This document shows, piece after piece, positions 25,168 through 63,841 of a DNA stretch of 64,000 nucleotides. The notes under the pieces are model-generated. The model was not told the DNA's origin, ran no database searches, and saw only the letters and a program-made list of their open reading frames with translations. The DNA comes from Bacillota bacterium. Lineage in GTDB: Bacteria > Bacillota > Clostridia > Lachnospirales > Lachnospiraceae. The first letter of the stretch is position 1, and the number at the start of each line of letters is the position of its first letter. Where the stretch lies: positions 5,215 to 69,214 of the forward strand of contig JAEYFP010000066.1 of the NCBI GenBank assembly GCA_023402845.1, in the 5' to 3' direction. Position numbers and translations under genes: made by a program.

Positions 25168-26346
25168 ATGTCAAAAAAGGTAGTATTGGCAGGTGCCTGC
25201 CGTACCGCGATCGGTACTATGGGTGGCGCATTAAGCAAGACACCGGCTGCGGAGCTCGGTGCAATTGTAATTAAAGAAGCATTGAACAGGGCGGGAGTTG
25301 CACCGGAGGCAGTTGATCAGGTATATATGGGCTGCGTAATCCAGGCAGGTCTTGGTCAGAACGTAGCACGTCAGGCTTCCATTAAAGCGGGGCTTCCGAT
25401 TGAAGTACCGGCAGTTACGATGAATGTTGTATGCGGTTCGGGTCTGAACTGTGTGAATCAGGCTGCACAGATGATTATGGCAGGGGATGCCGATATCGTT
25501 GTAGCGGGTGGTATGGAGAATATGTCTTTGGCTCCGTATACGGTTCCTCAGGCTCGATTTGGATATAGAATGAATAACGCTACATTGGTAGATACGATGG
25601 TAAACGATGCATTATGGGATGCCTTTAACAACTACCATATGATTACAACGGCCGATAATATTTGCCGTGAATGGAATCTGACACGCGAAGAGCTTGATGA
25701 ATTTGCTCTTGATAGCCAGCAGAAGGCTTGTGCGGCACAGGAAAACGGTGCATTTGATAAGGAAATTGTACCGGTACCAGTAAAGGTTAAGAAGGAAACC
25801 GTACTGTTTACAAAGGACGAGGGTCCCCGTTCCGGTTCTACAATAGAAGGTCTTGCAAAGCTTCGCGCAATTAATCCGGACGGCTTCGTTACAGCGGGCA
25901 ATGCTTCCGGTATCAACGATGGCGCGGCAGCCATTGTCGTGATGAGCGAAGAAAAGGCAAAGGAGCTCGGCGTGAAGCCGATGGCAACCTTTACAGCAGG
26001 CGCACTTGCGGGTGTCAGACCAGAGGTTATGGGTATCGGACCTGTTGCAGCCACGCAGAAGGTATGTGCGAAAGCAGGCATGAAGGTAGAAGATTTTGAT
26101 CTGATTGAAGCAAACGAGGCATTTGCGGCACAGTCTGTCGCAGTTGGAAAGGATCTTGGTTTTGATCTGAGCAAGCTGAATGTCAATGGCGGAGCCATTG
26201 CGCTCGGACATCCGGTAGGTGCATCGGGCTGCCGTATTCTTGTTACACTGCTTCATGCAATGGAGGCGCGTGATGCAAAGAAGGGGCTTGCGACACTTTG
26301 TATCGGCGGTGGCATGGGCTGCGCGACGATCGTAGAAAGAGACTAA
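25168..26346 (+). CDS. thl: Acetyl-CoA C-acetyltransferase (thiolase)
   Basis: Active-site regions [21 protein letters not shown] and CIGGGMG. The start at 25168 is 7 nt after GGAGG. Confidence 0.93.
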
Positions 26347-26397
26347 TTTACTGTTTTGCATAAAACAGCAAATAGAACAATAAAAAGGAGAAAACGC

Positions 26398-27183
26398 ATG
26401 GAATTTGTATTGTATGAGCAGAAGGGTGCGGTAGGTAAGATTACCATCAGTCGTGAAAAGGCGCTGAACGCATTGAATTCGGCAGTTCTTGAGGAACTGG
26501 ATCAGACACTTGATGCAGTGGATTTGCAGGAAGTGAGATGCTTGATTCTGACAGGCGCAGGACAGAAGTCTTTCGTAGCCGGTGCGGATATCGGTGAGAT
26601 GAGCACGCTGACAAAGGCCGAGGGAGAGACGTTCGGCAAGAAGGGCAACGATGTGTTCCGCAAACTGGAAACATTTCCGATCCCTGTTATCGCGGCAATC
26701 AACGGATTTGCGCTTGGCGGCGGCTGTGAGATTTCCATGAGCTGTGATATCAGGATTTGTTCTGATAATGCCGTATTCGGACAGCCTGAGGTGGGCCTTG
26801 GAATTACACCCGGCTTTGGCGGTACTCAGAGACTTGCGCGTATTGTAGGCGTGGGCATGGCAAAGCAGATGATTTATACGGCGCGCAACATTAAGGCTGA
26901 CGAGGCATACAGGATTGGTCTTGTCAATGCGGTATATACGCAGGAAGAATTACTGCCGGCGGCAGAGAAGATGGCGGCAGGTATCGCAAAGAACGCGCCG
27001 ATCGCTGTTCGCAACAGTAAGAAGGCAATCAATGATGGACTTCAGGTAGATATGGACGTCGCAATTGTGGTTGAAGAGAAGCTGTTCGGTAATTGTTTCG
27101 AAACAGCAGATCAGAAATACGGAATGGAATTTTTCCTTGATAAAAATAAGGAAAAAGTAAAGGAAGCATTCAAGAACTGCTAA
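26398..27183 (+). CDS. crt: Short-chain enoyl-CoA hydratase (crotonase)
   Basis: MEFVLYEQKGAVGKITISREKALNAL..., FVAGADIGEM and AAINGFALGGGCE are crotonase-fold signatures. The start at 26398 follows AAAAGGAG. Confidence 0.9.
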   Translation: MEFVLYEQKGAVGKITISREKALNALNSAVLEELDQTLDAVDLQEVRCLILTGAGQKSFVAGADIGEMSTLTKAEGETFGKKGNDVFRKLETFPIPVIAAINGFALGGGCEISMSCDIRICSDNAVFGQPEVGLGITPGFGGTQRLARIVGVGMAKQMIYTARNIKADEAYRIGLVNAVYTQEELLPAAEKMAAGIAKNAPIAVRNSKKAINDGLQVDMDVAIVVEEKLFGNCFETADQKYGMEFFLDKNKEKVKEAFKNC

Positions 27184-27252
27184 AAAAATAATGGCGGCGG
27201 CAGAAATGCCGCCGACTATCATGAGGAAAATAAGTCTAAGGAGGACAATAGA

Positions 27253-28092
27253 ATGAAGGTTGGAGTGATCGGTGCAGGAACGATGGGTTCCGGTATTGCA
27301 CAGGCATTTGTTATGACAGACGGTTATGAAGTATGTCTTTGTGACATTAAGACGGAGTATGCAGAAGGCGGAAAGGCTAAAATCCAGAAAAATATGGATT
27401 TTCTTGTAAGCAAGGAAAAGATTGCAAAAGAAAAAGCGGATGAAATTATGAGCAGGATTTCGACAGGCTTAAACGGCATCTGCACGGACTGCGATTTGAT
27501 CATTGAGGTTGCTCTTGAGAAACTGGAAATCAAGCAGAGCATTTTCAAAGAGCTGATGGGAATTGTAAAGAAGGACTGTATGTTTGCATCCAATACATCT
27601 TCTCTTTCCATTACAAAAATCGGCGAAGGACTTGACCGGCCGATGATTGGTATGCATTTCTTTAATCCTGCAGACAGAATGAAGCTTGTTGAGGTAATCA
27701 AGGGCGAGAACACGCCGCAGGAAATGGTAGATAAGATCAAGGCGATTTCTGTTGAAATCGGAAAGACTCCTGTAGAAGTAAAGGAAGCTCCCGGTTTTGT
27801 TGTAAACAGGATTCTCATTCCGATGATCAACGAAGCAATCGGTGTATTTGCCGCAGGAACAGCATCCGCAGAGGATATTGACATCGCGATGCAGCTTGGT
27901 GCATCTCACCCGATGGGACCTCTTCACTTGGGAGATTTGGTAGGTCTTGATATCTGCCTTGCAATTATGGAAGTACTTTACACGGAGACAAAGGATGAGA
28001 AGTATGCGCCGCAGCCTCTTTTGAAGAAGATGGTAGAGGAGAAGAAACTTGGCAGAAAGACAGGCATCGGTTTCTTTGACTATTCCAAATAA
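27253..28092 (+). CDS. hbd: 3-hydroxybutyryl-CoA dehydrogenase
   Basis: VIGAGTMGSGIAQ Rossmann motif, SNTSSLSIT, and a C-terminal 3HCDH domain. Confidence 0.92.
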   Translation: MKVGVIGAGTMGSGIAQAFVMTDGYEVCLCDIKTEYAEGGKAKIQKNMDFLVSKEKIAKEKADEIMSRISTGLNGICTDCDLIIEVALEKLEIKQSIFKELMGIVKKDCMFASNTSSLSITKIGEGLDRPMIGMHFFNPADRMKLVEVIKGENTPQEMVDKIKAISVEIGKTPVEVKEAPGFVVNRILIPMINEAIGVFAAGTASAEDIDIAMQLGASHPMGPLHLGDLVGLDICLAIMEVLYTETKDEKYAPQPLLKKMVEEKKLGRKTGIGFFDYSK

Positions 28093-28157
28093 GCGGTATT
28101 GCTCTTTAACAGATCTATAACAATAAAACATATCAATTAATACGGAGGAATTAGATC

Positions 28158-29306
28158 ATGGATTTTGCATTAAGTAAAGAACATGAAATGGCCAGGACTC
28201 TTTTCAGGGATTTTGCCCAGAAGGAAGTGAAGCCATTGGCTCAGGAAGTGGATGAGACAGAAGTGTTCCCGAGAGGAACCGTTGAAAAAATGGCTAAGGC
28301 AGGATTTCTTGGAATTCCTGTACCGAAGGAGTACGGCGGACAAGGCTGTGATCCTTTGGCATACGCGATGTGCGTAGAGGAGCTTTCGAAGGTCTGCGGT
28401 ACGACAGGCGTTATTGTATCCGCACATACATCGCTTTGCTGCGATCCGATCATGGCTTACGGAACGGAAGAACAGAAGCAGAAATATTTGCCGTCTCTTG
28501 CAAAGGGTGAGAAAATCGGCGCTTTCGGCTTGACAGAACCGGGTGCCGGAACAGATGCACAAGGACAGCAGACAAAGGCTGTACTTGACGGTGATGAGTG
28601 GGTAGTCAACGGCTCCAAAATTTTTATCACAAACGGTAAAGAAGCCGATGTTTATGTTATTTTTGCCGTAACGGGAACGATTGAAAAGCGCGGCAAACTT
28701 ATTAAGGAAATCTCTGCTTTTATTGTAGAAAAGGGCACACCCGGTTTTTCCTTTGGTACAAAGGAAAAGAAGATGGGTATCCGCGGTTCTTCTACTTATG
28801 AACTTATTTTTACGGATTGCAGAATTCCGAAGGGAAATCTTCTTGGAAAAGAAGGAAAGGGCTTCGGTATTGCAATGCATACACTGGACGGTGGCCGTAT
28901 CGGTATTGCCGCACAGGCACTCGGTCTTGCTGAAGGCGCTCTTGAGAATACAATTGCATACGTAAAAGAAAGAAAGCAGTTTGGCAAGCCGATCGGCGCA
29001 TTCCAGAACACACAGTTCCAGATTGCGGATATGGCTACAAAGGTACAGGCTGCACAGCTTCTTGTATATAAGGCAGCGCTGGCAAAGGCTACACAGAAGT
29101 CTTACTCGCTTGAAGCAGCGATGGCAAAGCTTTATGCCGCAGAGGTTGCGATGGAAGTGACGACAAAGGCTGTTCAGCTTCACGGCGGTTACGGCTACAC
29201 GAGAGAGTACGACGTAGAGCGCATGATGCGTGATGCGAAGATCACGGAAATCTACGAGGGCACAAGTGAAGTGCAGAGAATGGTTATTTCAGCAAACATC
29301 ATGTAG
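28158..29306 (+). CDS. bcd: Butyryl-CoA dehydrogenase (short-chain acyl-CoA dehydrogenase)
   Basis: 382-aa ACAD with GLTEPGAGTD, QLHGGYGYTREY and EIYEGTSEVQ. It is followed by etfB and etfA. Confidence 0.92.
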   Translation: MDFALSKEHEMARTLFRDFAQKEVKPLAQEVDETEVFPRGTVEKMAKAGFLGIPVPKEYGGQGCDPLAYAMCVEELSKVCGTTGVIVSAHTSLCCDPIMAYGTEEQKQKYLPSLAKGEKIGAFGLTEPGAGTDAQGQQTKAVLDGDEWVVNGSKIFITNGKEADVYVIFAVTGTIEKRGKLIKEISAFIVEKGTPGFSFGTKEKKMGIRGSSTYELIFTDCRIPKGNLLGKEGKGFGIAMHTLDGGRIGIAAQALGLAEGALENTIAYVKERKQFGKPIGAFQNTQFQIADMATKVQAAQLLVYKAALAKATQKSYSLEAAMAKLYAAEVAMEVTTKAVQLHGGYGYTREYDVERMMRDAKITEIYEGTSEVQRMVISANIM

Positions 29307-29360
29307 GTTCAGAGGTAAATTTGAAATAGCAAACCAAACTATAAAAGGAGAGATTATACA

Positions 29361-30143
29361 ATGAAAATTGTTGTTTGTATTAAACAGGTACCTGATACAA
29401 AGGGTGGTGTCAAGTTTAATCCAGATGGAACGCTTGACAGAGCCGCTATGCTTACCATCATGAACCCTGATGACAAGGCAGGACTGGAAGCAGCACTTAG
29501 ATTAAAGGATCAGTACGGCGCAGAAGTAACTGTTGTTACGATGGGACTTCCAAAAGCAGAGGAAGTGCTTCGTGAGGCTATGGCGATGGGCGCTGATAAA
29601 GGGGTTCTTGTGACCGATCGTGTTCTCGGCGGTGCAGATACATGGGCAACATCCCAGACGATCGCGGGAGCAATCCGCAATCTGGAATATGATTTGATTA
29701 TCACGGGCCGTCAGGCAATCGATGGTGATACGGCACAGGTTGGACCGCAGATTTCCGAGCATTTGGGAATTCCGGTAATTTCCTATGCACAGAATATCAA
29801 AATCGAGGGTGACAGTGTTGTCGTAGAGCGTCAGTTTGACGACAGATATCATGTGTTGAAGGCGAAGATGCCGTGCCTGATTACGGCACTTGCCGAATTA
29901 AACGAGCCGCGTTACATGACGCCGGGCGGAATTGTTGATGCGTACAAGTCAGAAATTACCGTTTGGGGCAGAGCGGACTTAAAGGATGTGGAAGATTCCA
30001 ACCTCGGTCTGAAGGGCTCACCGACGCAGATTGCAAAGGCTTCCGATAAGGTAAGAAAGGGCATCGGTGAAAAGGTTGTTCTCGGTGCTGCGGAGTCAGT
30101 GGATTACATTATTGACAAGTTGAAGGTAAAGCATGTGATATAA
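29361..30143 (+). CDS. etfB: Electron transfer flavoprotein subunit beta
   Basis: MKIVVCIKQVPDT... is the canonical EtfB N-terminus; 260 aa. Confidence 0.92.
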   Translation: MKIVVCIKQVPDTKGGVKFNPDGTLDRAAMLTIMNPDDKAGLEAALRLKDQYGAEVTVVTMGLPKAEEVLREAMAMGADKGVLVTDRVLGGADTWATSQTIAGAIRNLEYDLIITGRQAIDGDTAQVGPQISEHLGIPVISYAQNIKIEGDSVVVERQFDDRYHVLKAKMPCLITALAELNEPRYMTPGGIVDAYKSEITVWGRADLKDVEDSNLGLKGSPTQIAKASDKVRKGIGEKVVLGAAESVDYIIDKLKVKHVI

Positions 30144-30201
30144 GGAAGCAAGGTTTAGATATTGCTTATTGCTGAAAATATAGCGAGGAAAGGTGAATGA
30201 A

Positions 30202-31245
30202 ATGAACTTGGAAGAATATAAAGGCGTATTTGTCTTTGCACAGCAGGTTGACAACAAGTTAAGCGGAATTGCATTGGAGCTTGTTGGCAAGGGCAAGGAT
30301 CTTGCAAAGGATCTGGAAACGGAAGTAACGGCAGTATTGATCGGCGATCAGGTGAAGAACCTTGCAGAGGAGCTTGCACAGTATGGTGCTGACAAGGTCA
30401 TCGTTGTGGATGATCCGGAATTAAAAGAGTACAGAACGGAGCCTTATACACATGCGCTTGCATCTGTGATTGAAAAATACAAGCCTGAAATTATGCTGGT
30501 AGGCGCAACGGCGATCGGCCGTGACTTAGGTCCGAGGGTATCCGCAAGAATTCATACAGGATTGACGGCGGATTGTACGCAGCTTGATATCGGAGATTTT
30601 CCGTTAGTTGCGATAGCGGGCAGAGAGCAGCTTCACAATCAGCTTTTGATGACACGTCCCGCATTTGGCGGAAATACGATTGCAACGATTGCTTGTCCGA
30701 ACTTCCGTCCGCAGATGGCAACGGTTCGTCCGGGCGTTATGCAGAAGGCTGCAAAGAATCCGGATGCCAAGGCTGTTGTAGAGGAATTTAATCCGGGCTT
30801 TGCTCCGAATAACAATTATGTTGAAATTATGGAAATCGTAAAAGCTGTTTCCAACGCTGCCGATATTATGGATGCAAAGGTTCTCGTATCCGGAGGCCGC
30901 GGCGTAGGCTGTACGGAAAATTTCCAGATGCTCAAAGACCTTGCAGACGCGCTCGGCGGCATGGTCAGCTGCTCTCGTGCGGTTGTGGATGCCGGTTGGA
31001 AGCCGAAGGATCTGCAGGTAGGACAGACCGGCAAGACTGTTCGCCCGAACGTATATTTTGCGGTCGGTATTTCCGGTGCAATCCAGCACTTGGCAGGTAT
31101 GGAGGAATCCGATATCATCATCGCAATCAATAAGGATGATACCGCTCCGATTTTTGATGTGGCAGACTATGGCATTGTAGGTGACTTCCATAAAATTGTG
31201 CCGATGCTGACAGAGAAGATTAAAGCTGAAATGGCAGCGAAATAA
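30202..31245 (+). CDS. etfA: Electron transfer flavoprotein subunit alpha
   Basis: C-terminal FAD-binding block YFAVGISGAIQHLAGM. The start is either the GTG at 30193 (ORF track) or the ATG at 30202; I prefer 30202 because of its spacing from GAGGAAAGG. Confidence 0.9.
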   Translation: MNLEEYKGVFVFAQQVDNKLSGIALELVGKGKDLAKDLETEVTAVLIGDQVKNLAEELAQYGADKVIVVDDPELKEYRTEPYTHALASVIEKYKPEIMLVGATAIGRDLGPRVSARIHTGLTADCTQLDIGDFPLVAIAGREQLHNQLLMTRPAFGGNTIATIACPNFRPQMATVRPGVMQKAAKNPDAKAVVEEFNPGFAPNNNYVEIMEIVKAVSNAADIMDAKVLVSGGRGVGCTENFQMLKDLADALGGMVSCSRAVVDAGWKPKDLQVGQTGKTVRPNVYFAVGISGAIQHLAGMEESDIIIAINKDDTAPIFDVADYGIVGDFHKIVPMLTEKIKAEMAAK

Positions 31246-50356: not shown

Positions 50357-50371
50357 CGATAGGAAAATGAA

Positions 50372-54907: not shown

Positions 54908-54919
54908 TTCTATTTTGAA

Positions 54920-54947
54920 GGGTAGTGCATGGGCACTGCCTTTTTTA
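54920..54947 (+). terminator. Intrinsic terminator of the thioesterase gene
   Basis: GGTAGTGC-ATGG-GCACTGCC followed by TTTTTT. Confidence 0.7.
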
Positions 54948-54983
54948 TTATATAGAAAATTCCTCCGAATTTTTTATATAATA
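54948..54983 (+). repeat. Family A repeat, partial copy A4 (H3 hairpin only)
   Basis: ATTATATAGAAAATTC-CTCC-GAATTTTTTATATAAT, immediately after the terminator T-run. Confidence 0.65.
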
Positions 54984-55237
54984 AAATGCAAAAATGCAAC
55001 AAATGGATTTTAAAAGCTGAAAAGAATAAAAAATAAAAATAGATACAAGCATAATACACAAAAGAATGCAACAAATGATAAAAAATATCAATACAATTTG
55101 TGCAAAATTGCAGAAATATGCATATAAATCATCTTACTATTGTAAATGTGGCATAAATATGATATATATAATATATAAAATGCAAATATGCATTTAAACT
55201 ATTATATGTTCCAATTATGGAAAAAGGAGATGTTGTT

Positions 55238-56689
55238 ATGGCTTTACTAACGGGCGAAGAGTATATTGAGAGTATTCGCAAGATCAAAATGGAAGTCTAC
55301 ATGTTTGGAGAAAGGATTGAGAATCCGGTTGACGATCCGATTCTCAGACCATCATTAAATTCCGTCAGAATGACGTATGATCTTGCACAGGATCCTCAAT
55401 ATGCGGATCTGATGACGGTAATTTCTCCGTTCACAGGAGAAAGGATTAATCGATTTACACATATTCATCAGAACACGGAAGATTTGAAAAACAAGGTTAA
55501 GATGCAAAGGCTTTGCGGACAAAAGACGGCTGCATGCTTTCAGAGATGTGTTGGTATGGACGCATTTAATGCAGTATTTTCTACGACATTTGAAATTGAT
55601 AAAAAATACGGAACGAGTTATCATGACAATTTCAAAAAATTTATGAATTACTGTGCAACAAATGATCTTACGGTAGACGGGGCAATGACCGATCCCAAAG
55701 GAGATCGCTCCAAGGCTCCGCATGCGCAGGAAGATCCGGATATGTATTTGCGTGTTGTGGAAGTGCGTGAGGACGGTATTGTAGTTCGGGGAGCAAAGGC
55801 CCATCAGACGGGGATGTTAAACTCCCATGAAGTAATTGTAATGCCGACTATCTCAATGGGACCCGATGATAAGGAATATGCGGTTTCCTTTGCGGTTCCG
55901 CTTGATGCAAAGGGACTCTTTATGATAATCGGGCGCCAATCCTGTGATACGAGAAAGCTGGAAGGATCCCAAATGGATGTCGGGAATGCGGAATTTGGAG
56001 GCGTGGAGGCACTTACTATTTTTGATGATGTATTTGTACCGAATGACAGAATTTTTATGAATGGCGAGACAGAATTTGCCGGCATGCTTGTTGAGCGGTT
56101 TGCGGGATATCATCGCCAGTCATACGGCGGCTGCAAAGTTGGAGTTGGTGATGTTCTGATTGGCGCGGCTGCAGTTGCAGCCGAATATAACGGAGCGGCT
56201 AAGGCATCTGCTGTAAAAGATAAGCTTATTGAGATGACACACCTGAATGAAACGTTATACTGCTGCGGTATCGCTTGTTCAACAGAAGGCTATCCTACAG
56301 ACTCGGGCGCGTATATGATTGATTTGCTTCTGGCCAATGTCTGCAAGCAGAACGTAACCAGATTCCCGTATGAGATTGTGCGTCTTGCAGAGGATATTGC
56401 GGGAGGACTTATGGTTACCGCACCTTCCGAGAAGGATCTAAGAGATGAGAAGCTGGGAAAATACATAGACAAATATTTGCGTGGTGTTGCTGAAGTATCC
56501 ACTGAAAATCGTCTGCGTATTCTCAGGCTTATTGAAAACCTTGCATTGGGAACGGCGGCAGTCGGGTACCGGACAGAATCAATGCATGGGGCAGGCTCTC
56601 CGCAGGCGCAAAGGATTATGATTGCAAGGCAGGGCAACCTTGGTCTTAAAAAGGAGCTTGCAAAAAAAATAGCACATATTACGGAATGA
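55238..56689 (+). CDS. abfD: 4-hydroxybutyryl-CoA dehydratase / vinylacetyl-CoA delta-isomerase
   Basis: MALLTGEEYIESIRK... The HpaB-like fold carries an AbfD-type Fe-S ligand pattern: C-X3-C (CFQRC) and H-X6-C (HRQSYGGC). The start at 55238 follows AAAAGGAG. Confidence 0.85.
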   Translation: MALLTGEEYIESIRKIKMEVYMFGERIENPVDDPILRPSLNSVRMTYDLAQDPQYADLMTVISPFTGERINRFTHIHQNTEDLKNKVKMQRLCGQKTAACFQRCVGMDAFNAVFSTTFEIDKKYGTSYHDNFKKFMNYCATNDLTVDGAMTDPKGDRSKAPHAQEDPDMYLRVVEVREDGIVVRGAKAHQTGMLNSHEVIVMPTISMGPDDKEYAVSFAVPLDAKGLFMIIGRQSCDTRKLEGSQMDVGNAEFGGVEALTIFDDVFVPNDRIFMNGETEFAGMLVERFAGYHRQSYGGCKVGVGDVLIGAAAVAAEYNGAAKASAVKDKLIEMTHLNETLYCCGIACSTEGYPTDSGAYMIDLLLANVCKQNVTRFPYEIVRLAEDIAGGLMVTAPSEKDLRDEKLGKYIDKYLRGVAEVSTENRLRILRLIENLALGTAAVGYRTESMHGAGSPQAQRIMIARQGNLGLKKELAKKIAHITE

Positions 56690-56707
56690 TTTTTGGAGGT
56701 TGTCTCT

Positions 56708-57001
56708 ATGACAGAAATAGTTTTAAAAGAAATAGAAGAAGTATTGGACAAAAATGTAAGGCCTAATCTGGCTATGCATGGCGGCAACATCCGGGTGGTC
56801 AGTCTGGAAGAAGAAAAACTTTATTTACGTATGGTCGGGCAATGCAGCGGGTGTCCGTCGGCAAACTTAACAATGGAAAATCTGGTTAATACTGAACTTA
56901 CGGAGGCATTTCCTAAGTTGAAACAGGTGTCTTTGGTAACGGGAGTCAGCGATGCTCTGCTTTTAGAAGCAAGAGAACTGCTGAAGAAGAGAAGAAACTG
57001 A
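56708..57001 (+). CDS. NifU-like Fe-S cluster domain protein
   Basis: LDKNVRPNLAMHGGNIRVVSLEE...GQCSGCPSA is the NifU C-terminal domain CXXC signature. Confidence 0.8.
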   Translation: MTEIVLKEIEEVLDKNVRPNLAMHGGNIRVVSLEEEKLYLRMVGQCSGCPSANLTMENLVNTELTEAFPKLKQVSLVTGVSDALLLEARELLKKRRN

Positions 57002-57092
57002 AAGCCTTTGTTAAGTGCCGCGGCGCTGCTTGCGTTCGGATCGGATCATTATATTAATCAGGCAAAAGACCTGAAAAAAGTGAGGAATCGTT

Positions 57093-58397
57093 ATGAATTG
57101 GAAAGTTGAGTATGCCGATAAGCTCTGTACAGCGGATGAAGCAGTTTCCCATATCAAATCGGGGGATCGTGTTGTTGTGGCACATGCGTGCGGGGAACCG
57201 GTAATTCTTACCGACGCAATGGTTGCCGGCGCCGAGAAATATGATTTTAAGAATATTGAAGTCGTTCATATGGTTGCGATGGGAAAGGCCGGTTACTGCG
57301 CCCCGGAAATGTCAAATCGTTTCAGACATAACGGACTGTTTTTGGGGGGAACATCAAGGGCTGCGGTTGAGGAAGGAAGAGGAGATTTTACTCCTGTATT
57401 CTTTTCTGATATTCCGGAATTGTTTAGAAGCAGCCTGAAAGCGGATGTGATTTTGTTTCAGGTGAGCGAACCGGATGAGCATGGATATTGTTCTTACGGA
57501 ATATCGTGTGATTATACGAAGCCATGTGCGGAAACTGCGAAATACAGAGTGGCACAGATTAATAGAAATATGCCAAGGGTGCTGGGAGATAATTTTATTC
57601 ATATCAGTGAATTGGATTATATTGTGGCTGAGGATACGGATCTGATTCAGCTTGTGCCTCCTCAAATAGGAGAGGTCGAGAGGAAAATAGGAGAAAACAT
57701 CGCTTCGCTTGTCAGGGATGGGGATTGTCTGCAGTTGGGCATTGGTGCGATTCCGGATGCGGTACTGCTGTTTCTGAAAGGAAAGAAGAATCTGGGTATT
57801 CACTCGGAAATGATTTCGGATGGAGTAGTGGAACTGATTAATGCCGGGGTTGTCACCAATAAATGCAAACAAATTGACAAAGGACAAAGCGTAGTGACAT
57901 TTTTGATGGGAACCAAAAAACTATATGACTATGTAAGAGATAATCCAACCGTAAAAATGCTTCCGGTTGATGTAGTAAATGATCCCAGGATCATCTGCCA
58001 AAATGATAATGTGGTTTCCATTAACTCCTGTGTGGAAGTGGACTTGATGGGGCAGGTTTGCTCGGAGTCAATTGGGTTAAAACAAATTTCCGGAATCGGG
58101 GGCCAGGTCGACTTTGTTCGCGGAGCGAATATGTCAAGAGGAGGCCGTACAATCATGGCGATGCCCGCCACGGCCGCAAAGGGTAAGATTTCCAAAATTG
58201 TTCCTTTCCTGACGGAGGGCGCTACGGTAACAACTTCGCGCTGTGACGTAAATTATGTGGTGACAGAATATGGGGTTGCGCAGTTACACGGTAAAACTCT
58301 GAAGGAGCGTGCAAAGCAATTGACGGAAATTGCGGCACCGCAATTCAAGGAAAAATTAATTGAAGAATATGAAAGACGTTTCCGCTGTAACTATTAA
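57093..58397 (+). CDS. 4-hydroxybutyrate CoA-transferase (acetyl-CoA hydrolase/transferase family)
   Basis: 434 aa with LQLGIGAIPDAV, the SE.IGLKQISGIGGQVDF block and a C-terminal transferase domain. It is adjacent to abfD. Confidence 0.82.
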   Translation: MNWKVEYADKLCTADEAVSHIKSGDRVVVAHACGEPVILTDAMVAGAEKYDFKNIEVVHMVAMGKAGYCAPEMSNRFRHNGLFLGGTSRAAVEEGRGDFTPVFFSDIPELFRSSLKADVILFQVSEPDEHGYCSYGISCDYTKPCAETAKYRVAQINRNMPRVLGDNFIHISELDYIVAEDTDLIQLVPPQIGEVERKIGENIASLVRDGDCLQLGIGAIPDAVLLFLKGKKNLGIHSEMISDGVVELINAGVVTNKCKQIDKGQSVVTFLMGTKKLYDYVRDNPTVKMLPVDVVNDPRIICQNDNVVSINSCVEVDLMGQVCSESIGLKQISGIGGQVDFVRGANMSRGGRTIMAMPATAAKGKISKIVPFLTEGATVTTSRCDVNYVVTEYGVAQLHGKTLKERAKQLTEIAAPQFKEKLIEEYERRFRCNY

Positions 58398-58433
58398 AAA
58401 ATGCACCTATGTGCGTGAGAAGGAGGATTTCTA

Positions 58434-59234
58434 ATGAAACTATATATTCTTAATACAGGGTACTTGGAAACAGATAAAAATGCAGTTGTAGCATGCAGTG
58501 TAGTGGGGACAAGAAGCAATCCGAATGTCCAGAATAAATGGATTAAACTGCCGGTTATGGCATTTCTGATTGACACCGGTGATGGTTATATTTTGTATGA
58601 TACAGGAAGCAATCCGGAAGCGATGAACGGTTATTGGCAAAACCTGATGCAGGAAATTTATCCGTTATATCAAAAGGATGAAGAGAGACTTGAAAATCAA
58701 CTTGCGCTGTGCGGCGTAAAACCGGAAGATATTAAAACGGTAGTTCTTTCCCATATGCATTTGGATCATGCGGGAAATCTGCAGTTATTCCCGCACGCAG
58801 ATGTTTATGTTCCGAAGGCTGATTATTTGAATGCATTGGCTGCCGTTCATATGAATCCTGATCCTGAGACACATGGAGGGTATATTAAAGGAGATCTGGA
58901 GAGACCGGCTAAGCAATATCATCTTGTAACAGAAGATTTTGAGTTGGCTCCCGGTGTTGAAATTGTCAATTTGCCGGGACATACGGAGGGACTTCTGGGT
59001 CTGGTGCTTCATTTGGAGGGAGGAACCTTCATTATTCCTCAGGACTGTGTATATACAAGCGAAATTTATGGTCCGCCTGCAAAGGTTTCCGGCTTGTTAT
59101 TCGATTCGGTGAATTTTCTTAAGTCAATTGAAAAGGTTCGCAGCTTGGAAAAGAAATATAATGCAAAGGTCATTTTTGCGCACGATTATGAATTTTTCCA
59201 GACACTTCAACTGGCACCAAAGTTTTACGAATAG
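58434..59234 (+). CDS. MBL-fold lactonase (AiiA / N-acyl homoserine lactonase-like)
   Basis: HMHLDHAGN is an HXHXDH motif. GHTEG is present, as is a D-x-x-Y pair (QDCVYT) like the lactone-binding Asp/Tyr of AiiA, and C-terminal FAHD. Confidence 0.75.
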   Translation: MKLYILNTGYLETDKNAVVACSVVGTRSNPNVQNKWIKLPVMAFLIDTGDGYILYDTGSNPEAMNGYWQNLMQEIYPLYQKDEERLENQLALCGVKPEDIKTVVLSHMHLDHAGNLQLFPHADVYVPKADYLNALAAVHMNPDPETHGGYIKGDLERPAKQYHLVTEDFELAPGVEIVNLPGHTEGLLGLVLHLEGGTFIIPQDCVYTSEIYGPPAKVSGLLFDSVNFLKSIEKVRSLEKKYNAKVIFAHDYEFFQTLQLAPKFYE

Positions 59235-59249
59235 TTTGCAGTGACTTTT

Positions 59250-59288
59250 AATAAGCCGATTTCTTACCGGAAATCGGCTTATTATTTA
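59250..59288. terminator. Bidirectional hairpin terminator between convergent genes
   Basis: AATAAGCCGATTTC (59250-59263) pairs with GAAATCGGCTTATT (59270-59283), with A/T-rich flanks. Confidence 0.7.
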
Positions 59289-59305: not shown

Positions 59306-59734
59306 TTATTTCAGGATAAGTGTGATGGAACCGGAAACTGCTTTTTTTTCGCAGACGGCTGATGAAACACTGAATTCATACAGCTGACTTCCGGGAGAAG
59401 AAATCAAGACCGCAGAGGTGGTTAATGTATCGCCGGGATATACGGCACGAATGAACCGCATCCGCTGAATTTGAAAGAGGAGCGGGAGACGATCTCTGTT
59501 TTCCGGTATTTCCATAAGAAGCAATGCGGCGGCCTGCGCCATGCATTCCGTGAGAAGGACGCCGGGCATGACGGGCTGTGCGGGGAAGTGGCCCCGGAAA
59601 ATATCCCAATCCGGATTGATGAAGGTGTTTGTTGTAATGGAACTCTCCGGGATCAACTCGGATACGGTATCCAGTAAGAGCATCGGTTCGCGGTGAGGCA
59701 GTTTTTTTTTGATTTCTTCTTGATTCATAATCAT
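59306..59734 (-). CDS. FabZ-like 3-hydroxyacyl-carrier-protein dehydratase
   Basis: LPHREPMLLLD and FRGHFPAQPVMPGVLLTECMAQAA are the hotdog dehydratase active-site block. Confidence 0.82.
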   Translation of the reverse strand: MIMNQEEIKKKLPHREPMLLLDTVSELIPESSITTNTFINPDWDIFRGHFPAQPVMPGVLLTECMAQAAALLLMEIPENRDRLPLLFQIQRMRFIRAVYPGDTLTTSAVLISSPGSQLYEFSVSSAVCEKKAVSGSITLILK

Positions 59735-59832
59735 GGGATATTCCTCGCTTTTATCAGATAAAATCAGTATAATATATTTTGATGATTTAGAAAAGAATGA
59801 ATGGACATATTATTAGTTTTGGAGGAAGCGGC

Positions 59833-60081
59833 ATGACAAATTTGGAAAAATACAAAAAAGTTTTAAAGAGTAATTTAGGTGCTTCGGAAGAGGAATTAAA
59901 TGATAATGACCTTGTGTATAACCGGTTTCCCAGATGGGACTCTGTCAGACATTTTGAAATCATAGCAGAGCTGGAAGAGAAATTTAGCGTTATGTTTGAA
60001 ACTCTGGATATTACCACATTCAGCAAATACAGCAAGGGAATTGAAATATTGGAGAAGCTTGGAGTTGATATGAGTCTGTAA
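59833..60081 (+). CDS. Acyl carrier protein-like protein
   Basis: 82 aa from the ATG at 59833 (RBS GGAGGAAG). A WDSV segment with Ser sits at the expected phosphopantetheine position, followed by an amphipathic helix (HFEIIAELEEKF). Confidence 0.7.
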   Translation: MTNLEKYKKVLKSNLGASEEELNDNDLVYNRFPRWDSVRHFEIIAELEEKFSVMFETLDITTFSKYSKGIEILEKLGVDMSL

Positions 60082-60140
60082 GCTTTCGGTTTATATCGTG
60101 AGGAACATAGTTAAAAGAATTAGAAGGGAGGAGAAGCCCC

Positions 60141-61553
60141 ATGATTTTTGCCATGGAAAAAAAACCTTTCGACAAAATTGCCGTATATGAAGATGCGGGC
60201 AATTTTGTTACCTATCATCAGTTATGTGAAGGGGTAACATGGTTTAAGGAGAAGGTCAGAGGCAGGAGCCTGATTTTTTGCTTGTGTCAAAACAGGGTGG
60301 GCTCTCTGATAGGATATCTTGGCGGTGTCGGCGGCGGGCATGTCGTTATAATGCTTGATTCTGAAATAGACACAAGTATGCTGGAAAATTTGTTTGATAG
60401 CTATCATCCGGATTATCTATGGGTTCCTTCCGGTAAAACGGAGCAGCTAAATGCGTTTTCATATGAAATCATATCTATGGCGTTTGGATACAGTCTTCTT
60501 TTAACAAACTGCAAAAGCTGTGACATGCATAAGGATTTGAGCTTGCTGCTGACAACATCGGGAAGTATCGGAAATCCGAAGCTTGTACGTACCAGCAAAA
60601 AAAACATAGAAGCAAATGCGGCTTCTATTGCAAATTATTTAAAATTGGGTGAAGGGGAGCGGCCTATTATGACACTTCCTATGCAATATTCTTATGGACT
60701 ATCCGTGATTAACAGTCATTTGCTGGCCGGTGCGACTCTCCTGATGACGGAAAGGAGCGTGGTGCAGCAGGAATTTTGGGATTTTCTCTCGGAAAGGCAG
60801 GCAACGAGCTTTGCGGGGGTTCCCTATACTTATGAAATGCTGAGAAGAATGAGGATAACAGAGAAAAGACTTCCGAGTGTTACATCCATGACCCAGGCCG
60901 GAGGCAAAATGCCGGAGCTGCTGCAGAAGGAGTTTGGACTGTGGGCAAAGAATCAGGGAATTCGGTTTTATATAATGTACGGACAGACGGAAGCGACGGC
61001 GCGGATGAGCTATCTTCCGTACGAGAAATGCCTTGAAAAGATTGGAAGCATCGGAATTTCGATTCCGGGCGGACGCTTTTTTATCCGGGATGAAAAAGGA
61101 AATAGAGTTGAAGAGCCGGGAGCAGATGGTGAGCTTGTTTACGAAGGAAAAAATGTTGGGTTGGGCTATGCGCAGACAAAAGAGGATTTCAATAGAGGGG
61201 ACGATTGGAAGGGAGTGCTTGCAACAGGAGATATTGCAAGGCAAGACGAGGACGGCTATTATTATATAGTAGGGAGAAAAAAGAGATTTATAAAAATTTA
61301 TGGAGTTCGGGTGGGGTTGGACGAATGTGAACAATTACTGCGAAAGCAGTATGAAGGACGGGAATTTGCATGTACCGGAAAAGATGACCACCTGGCGGTC
61401 TACACAAATGACAGAATCATACCGGAAGCGGTATGCGAAGCTCTGTCGAAAATGCTGCGCATAAGCAAAAGAGCCGTCTCCTGCGATTATATCGATGAAA
61501 TACCAAGAAATGCCGCGGGTAAAATACAATATGGTTTATTAGAAGAAAAGTGA
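60141..61553 (+). CDS. AMP-dependent synthetase/ligase (adenylating enzyme)
   Basis: Core motifs LLLTTSGSIGNPKLV (A3), YGQTEA (A5), TGDIARQDEDGYYYIVGRKKRFIKIYG (A7/A8) and PRNAAGKIQY (A10). Confidence 0.88.
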   Translation: MIFAMEKKPFDKIAVYEDAGNFVTYHQLCEGVTWFKEKVRGRSLIFCLCQNRVGSLIGYLGGVGGGHVVIMLDSEIDTSMLENLFDSYHPDYLWVPSGKTEQLNAFSYEIISMAFGYSLLLTNCKSCDMHKDLSLLLTTSGSIGNPKLVRTSKKNIEANAASIANYLKLGEGERPIMTLPMQYSYGLSVINSHLLAGATLLMTERSVVQQEFWDFLSERQATSFAGVPYTYEMLRRMRITEKRLPSVTSMTQAGGKMPELLQKEFGLWAKNQGIRFYIMYGQTEATARMSYLPYEKCLEKIGSIGISIPGGRFFIRDEKGNRVEEPGADGELVYEGKNVGLGYAQTKEDFNRGDDWKGVLATGDIARQDEDGYYYIVGRKKRFIKIYGVRVGLDECEQLLRKQYEGREFACTGKDDHLAVYTNDRIIPEAVCEALSKMLRISKRAVSCDYIDEIPRNAAGKIQYGLLEEK

Positions 61554-61572
61554 TTTATCTAAGGAGTGAAAA

Positions 61573-62664
61573 ATGTCCCCATTTGATATAAATTTTGACA
61601 GGCCGCCCTATCAGGCGCAGAAAAGAGAAAAAGACGAAACATTAACAAGACAGCTGTTGATGCTGACACAATATCATCGGGAACGCTGTGGGCAATATGA
61701 TGGGATTTTGTCGGCCTATCGATATGATGATGAAAAAGTAACTCATTACAGCGAGCTGCCCTTTTTGCCGTCCGGCCTTTTTAAGCGACTTACCCTGAGC
61801 AGTATTTCAGAAGAAGAAAGCGGGCTGAAGACTGTAACGTCATCCGGAACGACGGGGCAGCAGGTTTCAAAAATTGTTCTGGACGGAGAAACAAGAACCT
61901 TGCAGCAGCGGGCGCTTGTTTCGATAGGCAATGATTTTATAGGAAAACAGCGTATTCCCATGCTTGTCATCGACTGTGAAAAAACCGCAAAGGGGAAGAC
62001 CCATTTTTCGGCAAGAACCTCCGCCGTGCTTGGCTTTTCCCTGTTTGGGAAAAACAGAAGCTTTGCACTGGATGATCGGATGGAATTGGATATTCCCGCT
62101 ATAGAGAGATTTGTAGAATTGTATGGAAGAGAAAGGTTTCTGATTTTCGGCTTTACTTATTTGATATGGAGCTGCGTCTGTCTTGAACTGGAAACAAGAG
62201 GATTGCATATGGATCTGTCCAATGCAATCCTGATTCATGGCGGGGGCTGGAAGAAATTGCAGGCGGAAAATATTACAAGAGAGCAATTTAGGGAGAAACT
62301 ATACAAAACCTGTAATATTACGCGCGTGCATGATTATTATGGGATGGCGGAGCAGACGGGAAGCATTTTCATGGAATGTGAATATGGGCATATGCACTGC
62401 TCGGATTATTCGGGAGTTCTGCTGCGCAGGGCAAAAGATTTTACTTTATGCGAAAAAGGAGAAGCGGGTTTAATCCAGACTCTCTCGGTGCTGCCGTTAA
62501 GCTATCCCGGTCATAATATTCTGACAGAGGACGAGGGTGTTTTGCTTGGAGAGGATGATTGTAAGTGCGGAAGAAAAGGAGTCTATTTCAAGGTGCTTGG
62601 AAGAACTCGGCATGCAGAAATCAGGGGGTGCAGTGATACCTATGAAGAATCTGGAGAAAATTGA
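61573..62664 (+). CDS. LuxE-like acyl-protein synthetase
   Basis: 363 aa. LPFLPSGLFKRL and TSSGTTGQQVSKIVLD blocks plus C-terminal CxCG resemble the LuxE family as I recall it. Confidence 0.7.
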   Translation: MSPFDINFDRPPYQAQKREKDETLTRQLLMLTQYHRERCGQYDGILSAYRYDDEKVTHYSELPFLPSGLFKRLTLSSISEEESGLKTVTSSGTTGQQVSKIVLDGETRTLQQRALVSIGNDFIGKQRIPMLVIDCEKTAKGKTHFSARTSAVLGFSLFGKNRSFALDDRMELDIPAIERFVELYGRERFLIFGFTYLIWSCVCLELETRGLHMDLSNAILIHGGGWKKLQAENITREQFREKLYKTCNITRVHDYYGMAEQTGSIFMECEYGHMHCSDYSGVLLRRAKDFTLCEKGEAGLIQTLSVLPLSYPGHNILTEDEGVLLGEDDCKCGRKGVYFKVLGRTRHAEIRGCSDTYEESGEN

Positions 62665-63841
62665 ATTTATTTTTGGAAACGAAGAAATACTTTACAAGAT
62701 GGCCGAACAAAAACCGATGAAGCCGTTTTCGGATGAAGCACTTCTGTTTTTGGACAGTTTATCTGCAAGGATTCGGAGCTGTCTCGGGACAAAGGAAATG
62801 GCAGATGTCGCTGCTTTTGGATTTTGGTGCAGAAGGGCGGGAGTGATACAGAAAAAAGAGAGCTATGAAAGGCATATTGATTACAGGTTGGGAAGGGGAA
62901 TCGCACTTCATTTTGTTCCATCCAACCTGCCGGTGCTGTTCGCTTTTAGCATGGCTGCTTCTATATTGGCGGGCAATTGTGTAATTATGAGAATTCCTTC
63001 AAGGCGAAGCAGACAGGCGGAGGCCATTCTTCATTGTCTGGAGGATGTGCTGCTTGCGCTTCCCGAATGGTCCTTAAGAATCGTTTTTCTTAGATATGGG
63101 CATGAGAAGGCAATTACGGACATGTTGTCAGGGATGTGTGATATTCGGGTGATTTTGGGAGGGGATGCCTCGGTTACGGAGATAAGGAAATCGGCATTGC
63201 CGCCAAGAGCCGTTGAACTGACATTTGCCAATCGGAGTTCCGCTGCGGTTATAAAGGCATCGGAGGTCATAAAGAATTTGGATTTGGCGGATCTGTCAAG
63301 GAAATTTTATAATGATACTTATTTAAATGATCAGAATGCCTGTTCCTCTCCCGGGATTATTTACTGGCTGGGCACAAAAGGGGAGATTGAGTCCGCAAAG
63401 GAAATGTTTTGGAATGCGGTTTATGAATACGGCAGTAAAAGATATGAGGTAACACCTGTTCTGGCGATTAAAAAGTGGGAGCAGGCGGCTTGTATCGGAG
63501 CGACTGTCTGCAATACACAAATTTTTAATAATGAAAATCTGATTGTCAGAGCGGATGTTCCGATGTTGTCTGAAGAAGATTGGAATTATTTATCGCCGGG
63601 TGGCTTTTTTATAGAATCGGGAGGAGAAAGTTTGCAGGGTATTCTGCCGGTTTTGACTGAGAGGTGCCAGACCGTTACCTGCTATGGAATCTCCTGCTTG
63701 GAAATCGGAGGATTTTTTGCGGAAAATCGGGTAAGCGGAGCAGATCGTATTGTGGAATTCGGGCATGCACTGGATTTCTCTTTAATTTGGGATGGTTTTG
63801 ATCTGATCGCTTCAATGAGCAGGATGATCTCCTTTATGTGA
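62642..63841 (+). CDS. LuxC-like acyl-CoA (acyl-protein) reductase
   Basis: ~400 aa from the ATG at 62642. HFVPSNLPVLFAFSMAASILAGNCVIMRIPS and DQNACSSPG blocks resemble the LuxC family. It overlaps the luxE-like stop by 23 nt. Confidence 0.68.
   Translation: MKNLEKIEFIFGNEEILYKMAEQKPMKPFSDEALLFLDSLSARIRSCLGTKEMADVAAFGFWCRRAGVIQKKESYERHIDYRLGRGIALHFVPSNLPVLFAFSMAASILAGNCVIMRIPSRRSRQAEAILHCLEDVLLALPEWSLRIVFLRYGHEKAITDMLSGMCDIRVILGGDASVTEIRKSALPPRAVELTFANRSSAAVIKASEVIKNLDLADLSRKFYNDTYLNDQNACSSPGIIYWLGTKGEIESAKEMFWNAVYEYGSKRYEVTPVLAIKKWEQAACIGATVCNTQIFNNENLIVRADVPMLSEEDWNYLSPGGFFIESGGESLQGILPVLTERCQTVTCYGISCLEIGGFFAENRVSGADRIVEFGHALDFSLIWDGFDLIASMSRMISFM

Follow-up and report, generated by a model that had tools for sequence, protein, structure and literature searches.

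A four-gene cassette in the 64 kb stretch of DNA analysed here (the window) probably constitutes a module for conversion of 4-hydroxybutyrate (4HB) to crotonyl-CoA with a built-in gamma-butyrolactonase, and salvage of gamma-butyrolactone (GBL) is the role that we prefer for it. This lactonase is paired with 4HB genes in one operon in many bacterial phyla, so its most likely function is to feed or recycle GBL and not to destroy quorum-sensing signals.

Organization of the cassette

The genes abfD, nifU-like, 4HB CoA-transferase and MBL-fold lactonase follow one another on the + strand with gaps of 18, 91 and 36 nt (Table 1). Gene calls and sequence bore out this co-directional arrangement and the motifs cited in the initial annotation. 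The upstream terminator (fold -17.3 kcal/mol, z = -4.7) is followed by a U-run. At the 3' end, where a terminator had been claimed at 59250, a strong hairpin was found with a 16-bp stem (-22.6 kcal/mol, z = -7.6), although its U-tract is weak and a consensus terminator scan made no call there. A strong hairpin on either side thus sets the cassette apart as a unit of its own.

Table 1. Features of the cassette and its surroundings (window coordinates).
Feature	Position	Strand	Evidence
thl-crt-hbd-bcd-etfB-etfA, crotonyl-CoA sink (context, outside cassette)	25162..31245	+	NCBIfam
buk, butyrate with ATP step (context only)	33402-34469	-	Pfam Acetate_kinase family
ptb, butyryl-CoA to butyrate route (context only)	34533-35462	-	Pfam PTA_PTB
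Intrinsic terminator of upstream FlK-like thioesterase gene; cassette 5' boundary	54917..54944	+	Terminator scan
AT-rich regulatory region before abfD	54945..55237	+	Repeat search, sigma-54 promoter search
abfD: 4-hydroxybutyryl-CoA dehydratase / vinylacetyl-CoA isomerase ([4Fe-4S], FAD)	55238..56689	+	Pfam HpaB_N + HpaB, 1U8V match
Nfu/NifU C-terminal-domain protein	56708..57001	+	Pfam NifU, 79.6 bits
4-hydroxybutyrate CoA-transferase (AbfT/Cat2 type)	57093..58397	+	Pfam AcetylCoA_hydro N + C domains
MBL-fold lactonase, unnamed subfamily; proposed gamma-butyrolactonase	58434..59234	+	NCBIfam, PDB matches, genomic context
Strong cassette-ending hairpin, common to convergent FabZ-like gene	59249..59284	+	Folding
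FabZ-like hotdog dehydratase	59306..59734	-	Pfam FabA; NCBIfam FabZ 111.9 bits vs cut-off 113
Second conserved operon, acp-ligase-luxE-luxC	59797..63841	+	Pfam; NCBIfam matches weak
ACP-like	59797-60081	+	Pfam
AMP-binding ligase	60141-61553	+	Pfam
LuxE-like	61573-62664	+	Pfam
LuxC-like	62612-63841	+	Pfam
alpha/beta hydrolase	start ~63882, runs past window end	+	Pfam

AbfD, the NifU-like protein and the CoA-transferase

AbfD is similar over its full length to the Clostridium aminobutyricum enzyme (1U8V; 73% identity, E = 1e-239). Its CFQRC and HRQSYGGC motifs align to C99, C103, H292 and C299 of 1U8V, and Y296, E257 and E455 (1U8V numbering) are also present, so that seven of seven test residues are kept; we take Cys99, Cys103, His292 and Cys299 to be the [4Fe-4S] ligands and Tyr296, Glu257 and Glu455 to be active-site residues. 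The NifU-like protein contains a GQCSGCP motif (CSGC) and is a probable Fe-S donor for AbfD, an association noted earlier that is strengthened by the presence of nifU-like next to abfD in ~18 of 23 abfD-linked loci. The CoA-transferase has both the N and C domains of family I and is closest to characterised 4HB transferases (3EH7, 57% identity, E = 7e-161; AbfT 3GK7, 53%, E = 5e-146). The catalytic Glu (AbfT Glu238) is kept at position 239, and the score against the butyryl-CoA:acetate transferase model was 334, with a cut-off of 675.

A lactonase outside the named families

The HMHLDH motif of the MBL-fold protein comprises H107, H109, D111 and H112, to which H183, D204-x-x-Y207 and H250 are added. 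H107, H109, D111, H112, H183, D204 and H250 align to H118, H120, D122, H123, H198, D220 and H266 of AaL, and the metal ligands are invariant across 26 family members. The catalytic Tyr, Y207 (AiiA Y194, AaL Y223), lies 3 residues past the Asp ligand and is likewise invariant in the family. PDB matches were to AaL (5e-53), GcL (2e-49) and AiiB (1e-42). The best NCBIfam models were AhlS (205.5 bits, cut-off 475), AiiA (124, cut-off 375) and AttM (118, cut-off 390), every one under its cut-off, and no named equivalog score (AhlS, AiiA, AttM, AidB, YtnP) was reached. Judged from these matches, the protein is a member of the lactonase superfamily clade that falls outside every named family. Glyoxalase II, an identity entertained earlier, was ruled out by the lactonase-clade model and the PDB matches. 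The original 'AiiA-type' label is apt in that HMHLDH and Asp-x-x-Tyr are kept, but the protein is nearer AaL, GcL, AiiB and AhlS than AiiA.

With these four enzymes it shares the fold, the HXHXDH, H, D and H residues and the catalytic Tyr (~40% identity to AaL). Unlike them, it belongs to a separate subfamily, 64-89% identical within itself across phyla, that carries a TGYLETD signature and is embedded in 4HB metabolism; in the alignment, the acyl-chain hydrophobic patch of AaL, W26/F87/I237, is replaced by A17/Y76/L221. The substrates of AaL include gamma-lactones, GBL among them, and delta-lactones in addition to acyl-homoserine lactones (AHLs), although its KM values of 9-83 uM apply to other substrates and GBL is the exception to the low values (PMC6062542). 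Against a GBL assignment, the nearest characterised relatives of the MBL protein prefer AHLs. The enzyme is nonetheless best read as a gamma-butyrolactonase that would supply 4HB to AbfT and AbfD.

Linkage of the lactonase to 4HB genes

Conservation was surveyed in 53 species-level lactonase orthologues at >=64% identity. Seventeen have abfD or the transferase gene within a few kb, another 17 adjoin 4hbD, sucD, cat1 or gabT, and 19 have no 4HB gene within reach, many of these last flanks being incomplete. At 48-64% identity, 5 of 20 orthologues have an abfD/transferase context and 5 a 4hbD/sucD/cat1/gabT context; neither was seen in any of 7 orthologues below 48%. At loci without 4HB genes, neighbours were unrelated and non-recurring, and no competing context was found. 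The linkage check proposed at the outset thus gave a positive answer, with the lactonase linked to abfD and the 4HB CoA-transferase in no fewer than 22 additional species of several phyla. Two gene orders occur, both with short gaps (abfD-nifU-coaT-MBL and MBL-abfD-nifU-coaT). When all 4HB genes are counted, the linkage recurs in three gene contexts, at no fewer than 44 species-level loci drawn from several phyla.

The neighbours in the other contexts were well identified: a SucD-like protein matched C. kluyveri SucD (8CEI) at 1e-176, an Fe-ADH matched 'Cvir-Hbd2' at 1e-146 (other Fe-ADHs, 1e-31), and Cat1 and GabT exceeded NCBIfam cut-offs. In the lactonase tree, abfD-linked and 4hbD-linked members interleave, which argues for one family with one function. 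Since it adjoins sucD, 4hbD, cat1 or gabT as often as abfD, the lactonase is a general accessory of 4HB metabolism. The lack of 4hbD and sucD remarked upon in the initial annotation held throughout the window, where tblastn with 4hbD, sucD and gabT representatives gave no match and the sole match to cat1 was the cassette's own transferase (29%), but it is no hallmark of a special GBL-only route. No transporter was conserved among abfD-linked loci, in keeping with a substrate that is permeant or made internally.

Promoters and regulator

Of 23 abfD-linked loci, 16 have a canonical sigma-54 promoter 60-100 nt upstream of whichever gene leads the operon, lactonase-first loci included. This supports predicted co-transcription of the lactonase with abfD from one promoter in many loci. 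In the window's own regulatory region (54945-55237) a canonical -24/-12 element was not found, and TGGCA-N6-7-TGC was absent throughout L001, L002 and L024. The region does contain TGCA-N4-TGCA(AC) repeats at 54986-54998 and 55180-55192, with related copies near 55066 and 55101; ATGCA-N2-5-ATGCA has just 3 matches in the 64 kb, 2 of them in this region. L002 and L024 retain these repeats, and repeats of the same type lie 100-215 nt upstream of sigma-54 promoters in Clostridium loci. In the window's lineage the PAS-AAA+ activator has lost its GAFTGA loop, which reads LLGY----MDEKSG.

The initial annotation had considered the linkage undescribed. This was too strong, as a GBL lactonase is already joined with GHB catabolism in Agrobacterium blcABC (PMC3907764), and Nie et al. 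(2019, BMC Genomics, PMC6615313) list the gene set itself for Clostridium under the name 'XanR' sigma-54 regulon, consisting of abfD-nifU-hyp-ach-golB and acp-caiC-luxEC together with a PAS-AAA+ enhancer-binding protein. That listing, however, is uninterpreted: its function label is 'butyrate/butanol synthesis' alone, and 'golB' was not read as a lactonase. The Clostridium loci surveyed reproduce the XanR gene set, -24/-12 promoters included. The window has the same genes and order except for the small Cys-rich 'hyp' gene, and differs further in having no -24/-12 promoter or regulator GAFTGA.

Proposed role and alternatives

In the scheme that we infer, as to substrate, direction of flux and source of GBL, from the observed gene identities, catalytic residues, conserved linkage and shared promoters, the cytoplasmic MBL enzyme would open GBL to 4HB. 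The AbfT-type transferase would then form 4HB-CoA, with CoA from acetyl-CoA or butyryl-CoA, and AbfD, its [4Fe-4S] cluster probably delivered by the operon's Nfu-type protein, would convert this to crotonyl-CoA. Products of two gene sets located 20-30 kb upstream, bcd/etf-ptb-buk and crt/hbd/thl, would take up crotonyl-CoA; the butyrate genes reported earlier are indeed in the window, with ptb and buk on the - strand. We favour leakage from labile 4HB-CoA as the source of GBL. As a neutral, chemically stable compound that permeates membranes, GBL would be lost from the cell; a lactonase made along with AbfT would send leaked GBL back into the pathway, and would also trap GBL diffusing in from outside. 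In E. coli with 4HB CoA-transferases, GBL reached up to 3.7 g/l, ascribed to spontaneous lactonisation of 4HB-CoA (PMC13500679). The initial interpretation is supported in part; given that GBL leaks from 4HB-CoA, salvage accounts for the data no less well than the entry route from GBL to butyrate that it envisaged.

The closest precedent, an aerobic one, is blcABC (attKLM) of Agrobacterium tumefaciens, in which BlcC/AttM opens GBL to 4HB and growth on GBL proceeds via GHB; BlcC/AttM also cleaves AHLs, yet supports growth on GBL only (PMC3907764). Both systems place an MBL-fold lactonase in one operon with 4HB-consuming enzymes. The blcABC route is oxidative (GHB dehydrogenase and succinate-semialdehyde dehydrogenase, leading to succinate), whereas the window would use CoA transfer and radical dehydration to crotonyl-CoA; both dehydrogenases were absent from the window by tblastn, although sucD-4hbD-MBL operons do contain lactonases of this family elsewhere. 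The window lactonase is also nearer AhlS and AaL than blc AttM (118 bits, cut-off 390), and a PAS-AAA+ activator stands in place of the repressor BlcR (PMC3907764).

It is possible, if rather doubtful, that the operon instead serves GBL or substituted gamma-lactones from outside, which would diffuse in, be trapped as 4HB and be fermented to butyrate and acetate, as an anaerobic counterpart of blcABC. The window and ~15 other abfD-linked loci have no nearby 4HB-forming enzyme or transporter, a dedicated PAS-domain activator controls the operon, and methanotroph loci have sucD-4hbD-MBL in the order of blcA-blcB-blcC; in the blcABC precedent, GBL acts as inducer and also supports growth (PMC3907764). 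However, this lactonase is also found with 4HB routes that start from succinate or GABA, where 4HB arises within the cell, and the scheme leaves the co-regulated lux-like operon without a role. We also know of no abundant natural GBL in guts or sediments.

Co-regulation with acp-ligase-luxE-luxC could mean that the true substrate is something else. Of 22 abfD-linked loci, 15 have lux genes no more than 10 kb away, as against no 4hbD/sucD-linked locus, and the two operons fall in one predicted regulon (Nie 2019, PMC6615313). Hotdog proteins recur too: the FabZ-like gene is found near the cassette in the closest relatives (tblastn matches L002, L024, L028, L029 and L031), and hotdog matches lie within the operon itself in Eubacterium and a Planctomycetota MAG. 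Both operons, the hotdog protein and the alpha/beta hydrolase could then form one undescribed pathway with its own lactone, in which a lux-like carboxylate-reducing module takes the place of cat1 and sucD and forms the 4-carbon hydroxy acid, or the lactone, from another precursor, or else all the genes serve biosynthesis starting from crotonyl-CoA. We regard this as improbable: 8 abfD-linked loci have no lux genes, among them Negativicutes loci with full flanks, the module has no alcohol dehydrogenase, and the lux-like family matches are weak and uninformative.

Least probable is a quorum-quenching N-acyl-homoserine lactonase beside 4HB genes by chance, which the NCBI and NCBIfam label 'N-acyl homoserine lactonase family' and the proficient AHL lactonases AaL, GcL and AiiB as nearest solved relatives would favour, but which is opposed by the 4HB linkage, the promoter common with abfD, the strictly anaerobic hosts, the replaced AaL patch and the likelihood that N-acyl-homoserine, not being a 4-hydroxy acid usable by AbfT/AbfD, could not enter the pathway; the AHL variant offered in the initial annotation is unlikely on this last ground.

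GBL salvage, the role we prefer, is also to be set against known 4HB fermentations. The cassette resembles the C. aminobutyricum AbfD/AbfT system (73% and 53% identity, catalytic residues all kept), and a nifU-like gene beside abfD is typical, as in the sucD-4hbD-cat2-nifU-abfD clusters of P. gingivalis and C. difficile. The C. aminobutyricum, P. gingivalis and C. difficile clusters are not known to include a lactonase and have 4hbD, sucD or an aminotransferase, whereas the window has a lactonase and no 4HB-forming enzyme. Counting against the proposed role, C. kluyveri, C. aminobutyricum and P. gingivalis, the classic examples of 4HB fermentation, are not known to need such a lactonase.

A literature search found no natural repair enzyme for 4HB-CoA lactonisation. 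In engineered 1,4-butanediol/P4HB strains, 4HB-CoA made by AbfT or OrfZ lactonises spontaneously to GBL on the g/l scale (PMC13500679). A natural in-operon lactonase would solve the loss of GBL as a by-product that is met in such engineered 4HB-CoA pathways.

Gene content of the window and layout of the cassette

The ORF list and the gene calls on L001, the window's own metagenomic contig, agreed on four forward-strand genes encoding AbfD, a NifU-domain protein, a 4-hydroxybutyrate (4HB) CoA-transferase of the AbfT type (coaT) and an MBL-fold protein. The initial annotation had given intergenic gaps of 18, 91 and 36 nt, which the gene coordinates reproduce, and the motifs it quoted were all found in the window proteins. 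Its account of the surroundings was also borne out: bcd/etf, ptb and buk are present, and tblastn detected no 4hbD or sucD homologue in the 64-kb window. The bcd and etf genes belong to a thl-crt-hbd-bcd-etfBA set. The same tblastn search found no gabT homologue, and the idea that a copy of any of the three is concealed in the window was rejected.

Directly 5′ of the cassette lies a gene for an FlK-like (fluoroacetyl-CoA thioesterase family) hotdog thioesterase, which has its own terminator and is not kept beside the cassette in other genomes; ispD is found 1 kb upstream of the cassette. Genes for t6A modification (tsaE, tsaB, rimI-like, tsaD) form a cluster that is broken up by another MBL-fold gene, which is RNase Z-like (303 aa) and unrelated to the one in the cassette. 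Its product also matches the Anti-Pycsar Apyc1 Pfam model, a label that is uninformative because many lactonase homologues are listed with this model too.

Positions of features in the window and in related loci (locus coordinates carry an L prefix)
Feature	Position	Strand	Basis or remark
thl-crt-hbd-bcd-etfBA	25162-31245		
ptb, buk	33402-35462	-	
t6A-modification genes	49104-53715		
RNase Z-like MBL-fold gene	51166-52077		
ispD	53724-54461		
FlK-like thioesterase	54512-54907		
Terminator of FlK-like gene	54917-54944		terminator scan and fold
Region 5′ of abfD	54945-55237		TGCA-N4-TGCA(AC) at 54986 and 55180; TGGCAT at 55149
abfD	55238-56689	+	ORF list, L001 gene calls
NifU-domain gene (97 aa)	56708-57001	+	ORF list, L001 gene calls
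91-nt gap	57002-57092		
CoA-transferase (434 aa)	57093-58397	+	ORF list, L001 gene calls
MBL-fold gene (266 aa)	58434-59234	+	ORF list, L001 gene calls
Hairpin, cassette 3′ end, against convergent FabZ-like gene	59249-59284		16-bp stem, -22.6 kcal/mol, z = -7.6
FabZ-like hotdog gene	59306-59734	-	accompanies lux-like operon
ACP-like/AMP-ligase/LuxE/LuxC operon	59797-63841	+	lux-like operon
Alpha/beta hydrolase	63882-64000 (window part)	+	accompanies lux-like operon
PAS-AAA+ regulator	L001 16399-17838		~830 nt past window end
Cys-rich gene, examples	L024 8370-8660; L032 8373-8636; L052 12313-12651		
IspD-like gene and kinase fusion	~7600-10000 in L025, L040, L041, L045, L073		five Clostridia MAGs
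Lactonase between kinase and regulator	~7466-11486 in L004, L006, L007, L009, L012, L061		gut Gastranaerophilales

Identities of the encoded enzymes

AbfD matched the Clostridium aminobutyricum enzyme (1U8V) at E = 1e-239 and 73% identity, and alignment to that structure showed that the cluster ligands C99, C103, H292 and C299 are retained, together with Y296, E257 and E455. Solved 4HB CoA-transferases were the top matches of the CoA-transferase (57% identity to Porphyromonas gingivalis 3EH7); the protein is 53% identical to AbfT (3GK7) with the catalytic Glu retained, and scored well under the cut-off of the butyryl-CoA:acetate transferase model.

For the MBL-fold protein, the highest-scoring family models were the AhlS, AiiA and AttM lactonases, each under its curated cut-off. 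The best structure matches were the lactonases AaL (5e-53, ~40% identity), GcL and AiiB. A glyoxalase II or beta-lactamase identity was rejected, as the best family and structure matches were all lactonases; beta-lactamase models scored <33 bits. All seven metal ligands of AaL and its catalytic Tyr are present and are invariant among 26 family members, and the hydrophobic patch that contacts the acyl chain in AaL (W26/F87/I237) corresponds to A17/Y76/L221. No signal peptide is apparent, since the protein aligns with cytoplasmic lactonases from residue 2 on. Identity within this lactonase subfamily is unusually high, at 64-89% across phyla.

The lactonase recurs with 4HB genes across phyla

A single scan of species-representative genomes with the lactonase family alignment listed 80 loci, whose neighbours were typed by tblastn and ORF clustering. 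Among the 53 loci with at least 64% identity to the window's lactonase (its own contig left out), the gene was next to abfD or the 4HB transferase in 17, next to 4hbD, sucD, cat1 or gabT in 17, and next to neither set in 19, many of these 19 having incomplete flanks. The corresponding numbers were 5, 5 and 10 at 48-64% identity (n = 20) and 0, 0 and 7 below 48% (n = 7). The lactonase-abfD linkage, for which a conservation survey had been proposed, thus recurs beyond the window (17/53 and 5/20 loci), in two gene orders: abfD-nifU-(hyp)-coaT-MBL and MBL-abfD-nifU-(hyp)-coaT, where hyp is a small Cys-rich protein gene. As for the other neighbours, the SucD-like protein matched C. kluyveri SucD (8CEI) at 1e-176 vs. 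2e-95 for AdhE, the Fe-ADH matched ‘Cvir-Hbd2’ at 1e-146 vs. 8e-31 for other Fe-ADHs, and Cat1 and GabT exceeded NCBIfam cut-offs. Where 4HB genes are missing, the lactonase has neighbours of unrelated kinds, among them Mn-catalase, NYN nuclease, subtilase and MFS transporter genes, and another conserved context was rejected; one pair of neighbours does recur, the IspD-like and choline-kinase-like genes described below.

Cultured carriers are Faecalispora sporosphaeroides DSM 1294, Eubacterium barkeri, Clostridium puniceum, C. chromiireducens and Lucifera butyrica. Hosts overall include Clostridium spp., Faecalispora, E. barkeri, E. aggregans and Desulfosporosinus; the Negativicutes Pelosinus, Lucifera and Sporomusaceae; and Synergistaceae, Fusobacteriaceae, a Planctomycetota MAG, Gastranaerophilales, Prolixibacteraceae and Methylococcaceae. 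In the methanotrophs the order sucD-4hbD-MBL is identical to blcA-blcB-blcC, the Agrobacterium gamma-butyrolactone (GBL) operon. In a neighbour-joining tree, abfD-linked and 4hbD-linked lactonases are repeatedly interleaved; we read them as one functional family moving between 4HB gene sets.

Two local arrangements were also observed. In five Clostridia MAGs the lactonase is preceded by genes for a cytidylyltransferase of IspD type and for a nucleotidyltransferase/choline-kinase fusion; the ispD near the window's cassette may be a trace of common ancestry with this arrangement or mere coincidence. In gut Gastranaerophilales (Melainabacteria) the lactonase gene is flanked by those for a PAS histidine kinase and its response regulator, beside cat1 and divergent from sucD-4hbD; two near-identical loci assigned to Methanomethylophilaceae (L013) and Bacteroidaceae (L015) bins are probably mis-binned.

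Genes accompanying the abfD-linked loci

Of 22 loci in which the lactonase is linked to abfD, 15 also have the lux-like operon that lies downstream of the cassette in the window; it is absent from every 4hbD/sucD-linked locus. Naming it through NCBIfam was abandoned, as matches were weak and far under cut-off; the AMP-ligase and hotdog protein show a weak likeness to cispentacin AmcH and AmcE. The operon may be a source of a C4 hydroxy acid, replacing cat1, sucD and 4hbD, or may serve another purpose.

The Cys-rich gene lies between nifU and coaT in 13 of 23 abfD-linked loci. Its product (86-125 aa, motif CGGCNP...DR ... CGC..C) has no Pfam or NCBIfam match, corresponds to the ‘hyp’ of the XanR operon, a predicted sigma-54 regulon of Clostridium, and may be an additional Fe-S or maturation factor for AbfD. 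The 91-nt gap in the window holds no remnant of it and no significant structure.

A sigma-54 promoter that the window's lineage appears to have lost

Canonical sigma-54 promoters (TGGCAY-N5-TTGCT) were found in 16 of the 23 loci with abfD linkage, at 60-100 nt 5′ of the first operon gene, whether this is abfD or the lactonase, and the sigma-54 loci have an adjacent PAS-AAA+ enhancer-binding protein (EBP) with a GAFTGA or GSFTGA loop. This arrangement agrees with the computationally reconstructed XanR regulon (Nie et al. 2019, PMC6615313). In the window's clade (L001 and the related loci L002 and L024), however, the GAFTGA loop, which contacts sigma-54, is deleted or replaced (LLGY----MDEKSG), and no -24/-12 site was found throughout the locus. 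By contrast, GAFTGA or GSFTGA is retained by each of the 20 EBP copies in the 19 further loci that were checked, and every one of these loci except L053 has the canonical -24/-12 site. The Sigma54_activat score is 91 bits for the window-lineage regulator vs. 233 bits for that of Faecalispora (L010). A candidate promoter 5′ of the window's abfD was discarded: its TGGCAT lacks the -12 GC and is not kept in L002 or L024. TGCA-N4-TGCA(AC) repeats, also found upstream of Clostridium promoters, persist at two positions there. Judged from these sequences, the regulator of this lineage now appears to be sigma-54-independent.

A proposed route from GBL to butyrate

GBL is the lactone of 4HB, and we propose it as the substrate because the superfamily indicates lactone hydrolysis and the gene context indicates 4HB. 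The lactonase would open GBL to 4HB, AbfT would form 4HB-CoA, AbfD, with Nfu support, would yield crotonyl-CoA, and the genes upstream in the window would convert this to butyrate and acetate.

GBL could arise by spontaneous lactonisation of 4HB-CoA, which is documented at g/l levels when strains express 4HB CoA-transferases (PMC13500679) and would explain why the lactonase is found with 4HB pathways of any origin (succinate, GABA or unknown). Alternatively it could come from outside, for which Agrobacterium blcABC is the model (PMC3907764); that abfD-type loci have no conserved transporter or 4HB-forming enzyme speaks for this source, which we regard as a by-product capability. We favour 4HB-CoA lactonisation, with outside GBL as secondary; this is a preference, as the evidence does not separate the two. 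A purely quorum-quenching lactonase is unlikely given the recurrent 4HB gene context, the promoter common to lactonase and abfD, and the fact that N-acyl-homoserine would be of no use to AbfT or AbfD.

Prior record and significance

The initial annotation knew of no description of the linkage. Full-text literature searches found no paper tying abfD or 4HB-CoA to a lactonase or butyrolactone; the gene set itself, however, was already catalogued in the XanR regulon (Nie et al. 2019), where the lactonase was left uninterpreted. That entry and blcABC, whose continuation is aerobic and oxidative, are the nearest precedents. On comparative-genomic grounds, the predicted lactonase-4HB cassette is solid and testable. 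Much more tentatively, and doubtful as a whole, the ‘AHL lactonase’ subfamily (N-acyl homoserine lactonases), spanning Bacillota, Synergistota, Fusobacteriota, Melainabacteria, Bacteroidota and methanotrophs, might be a dedicated metabolite-repair and entry gamma-butyrolactonase of 4HB-CoA pathways, paired here with an undescribed ACP/LuxE/LuxC carboxylate-reducing module supplying the C4 hydroxy acid and with a regulator freed from sigma-54.

If the proposal is correct, a large cross-phylum family labelled as quorum-quenching N-acyl homoserine lactonases would be reassigned to metabolism in strict anaerobes. It would represent a natural answer to GBL leakage from 4HB-CoA, a loss that lowers the yield of strains engineered for 1,4-butanediol and P4HB and that could touch any 4HB-CoA pathway, and it would provide a possible route from 4HB (GHB) and GBL to butyrate in gut and sediment anaerobes.
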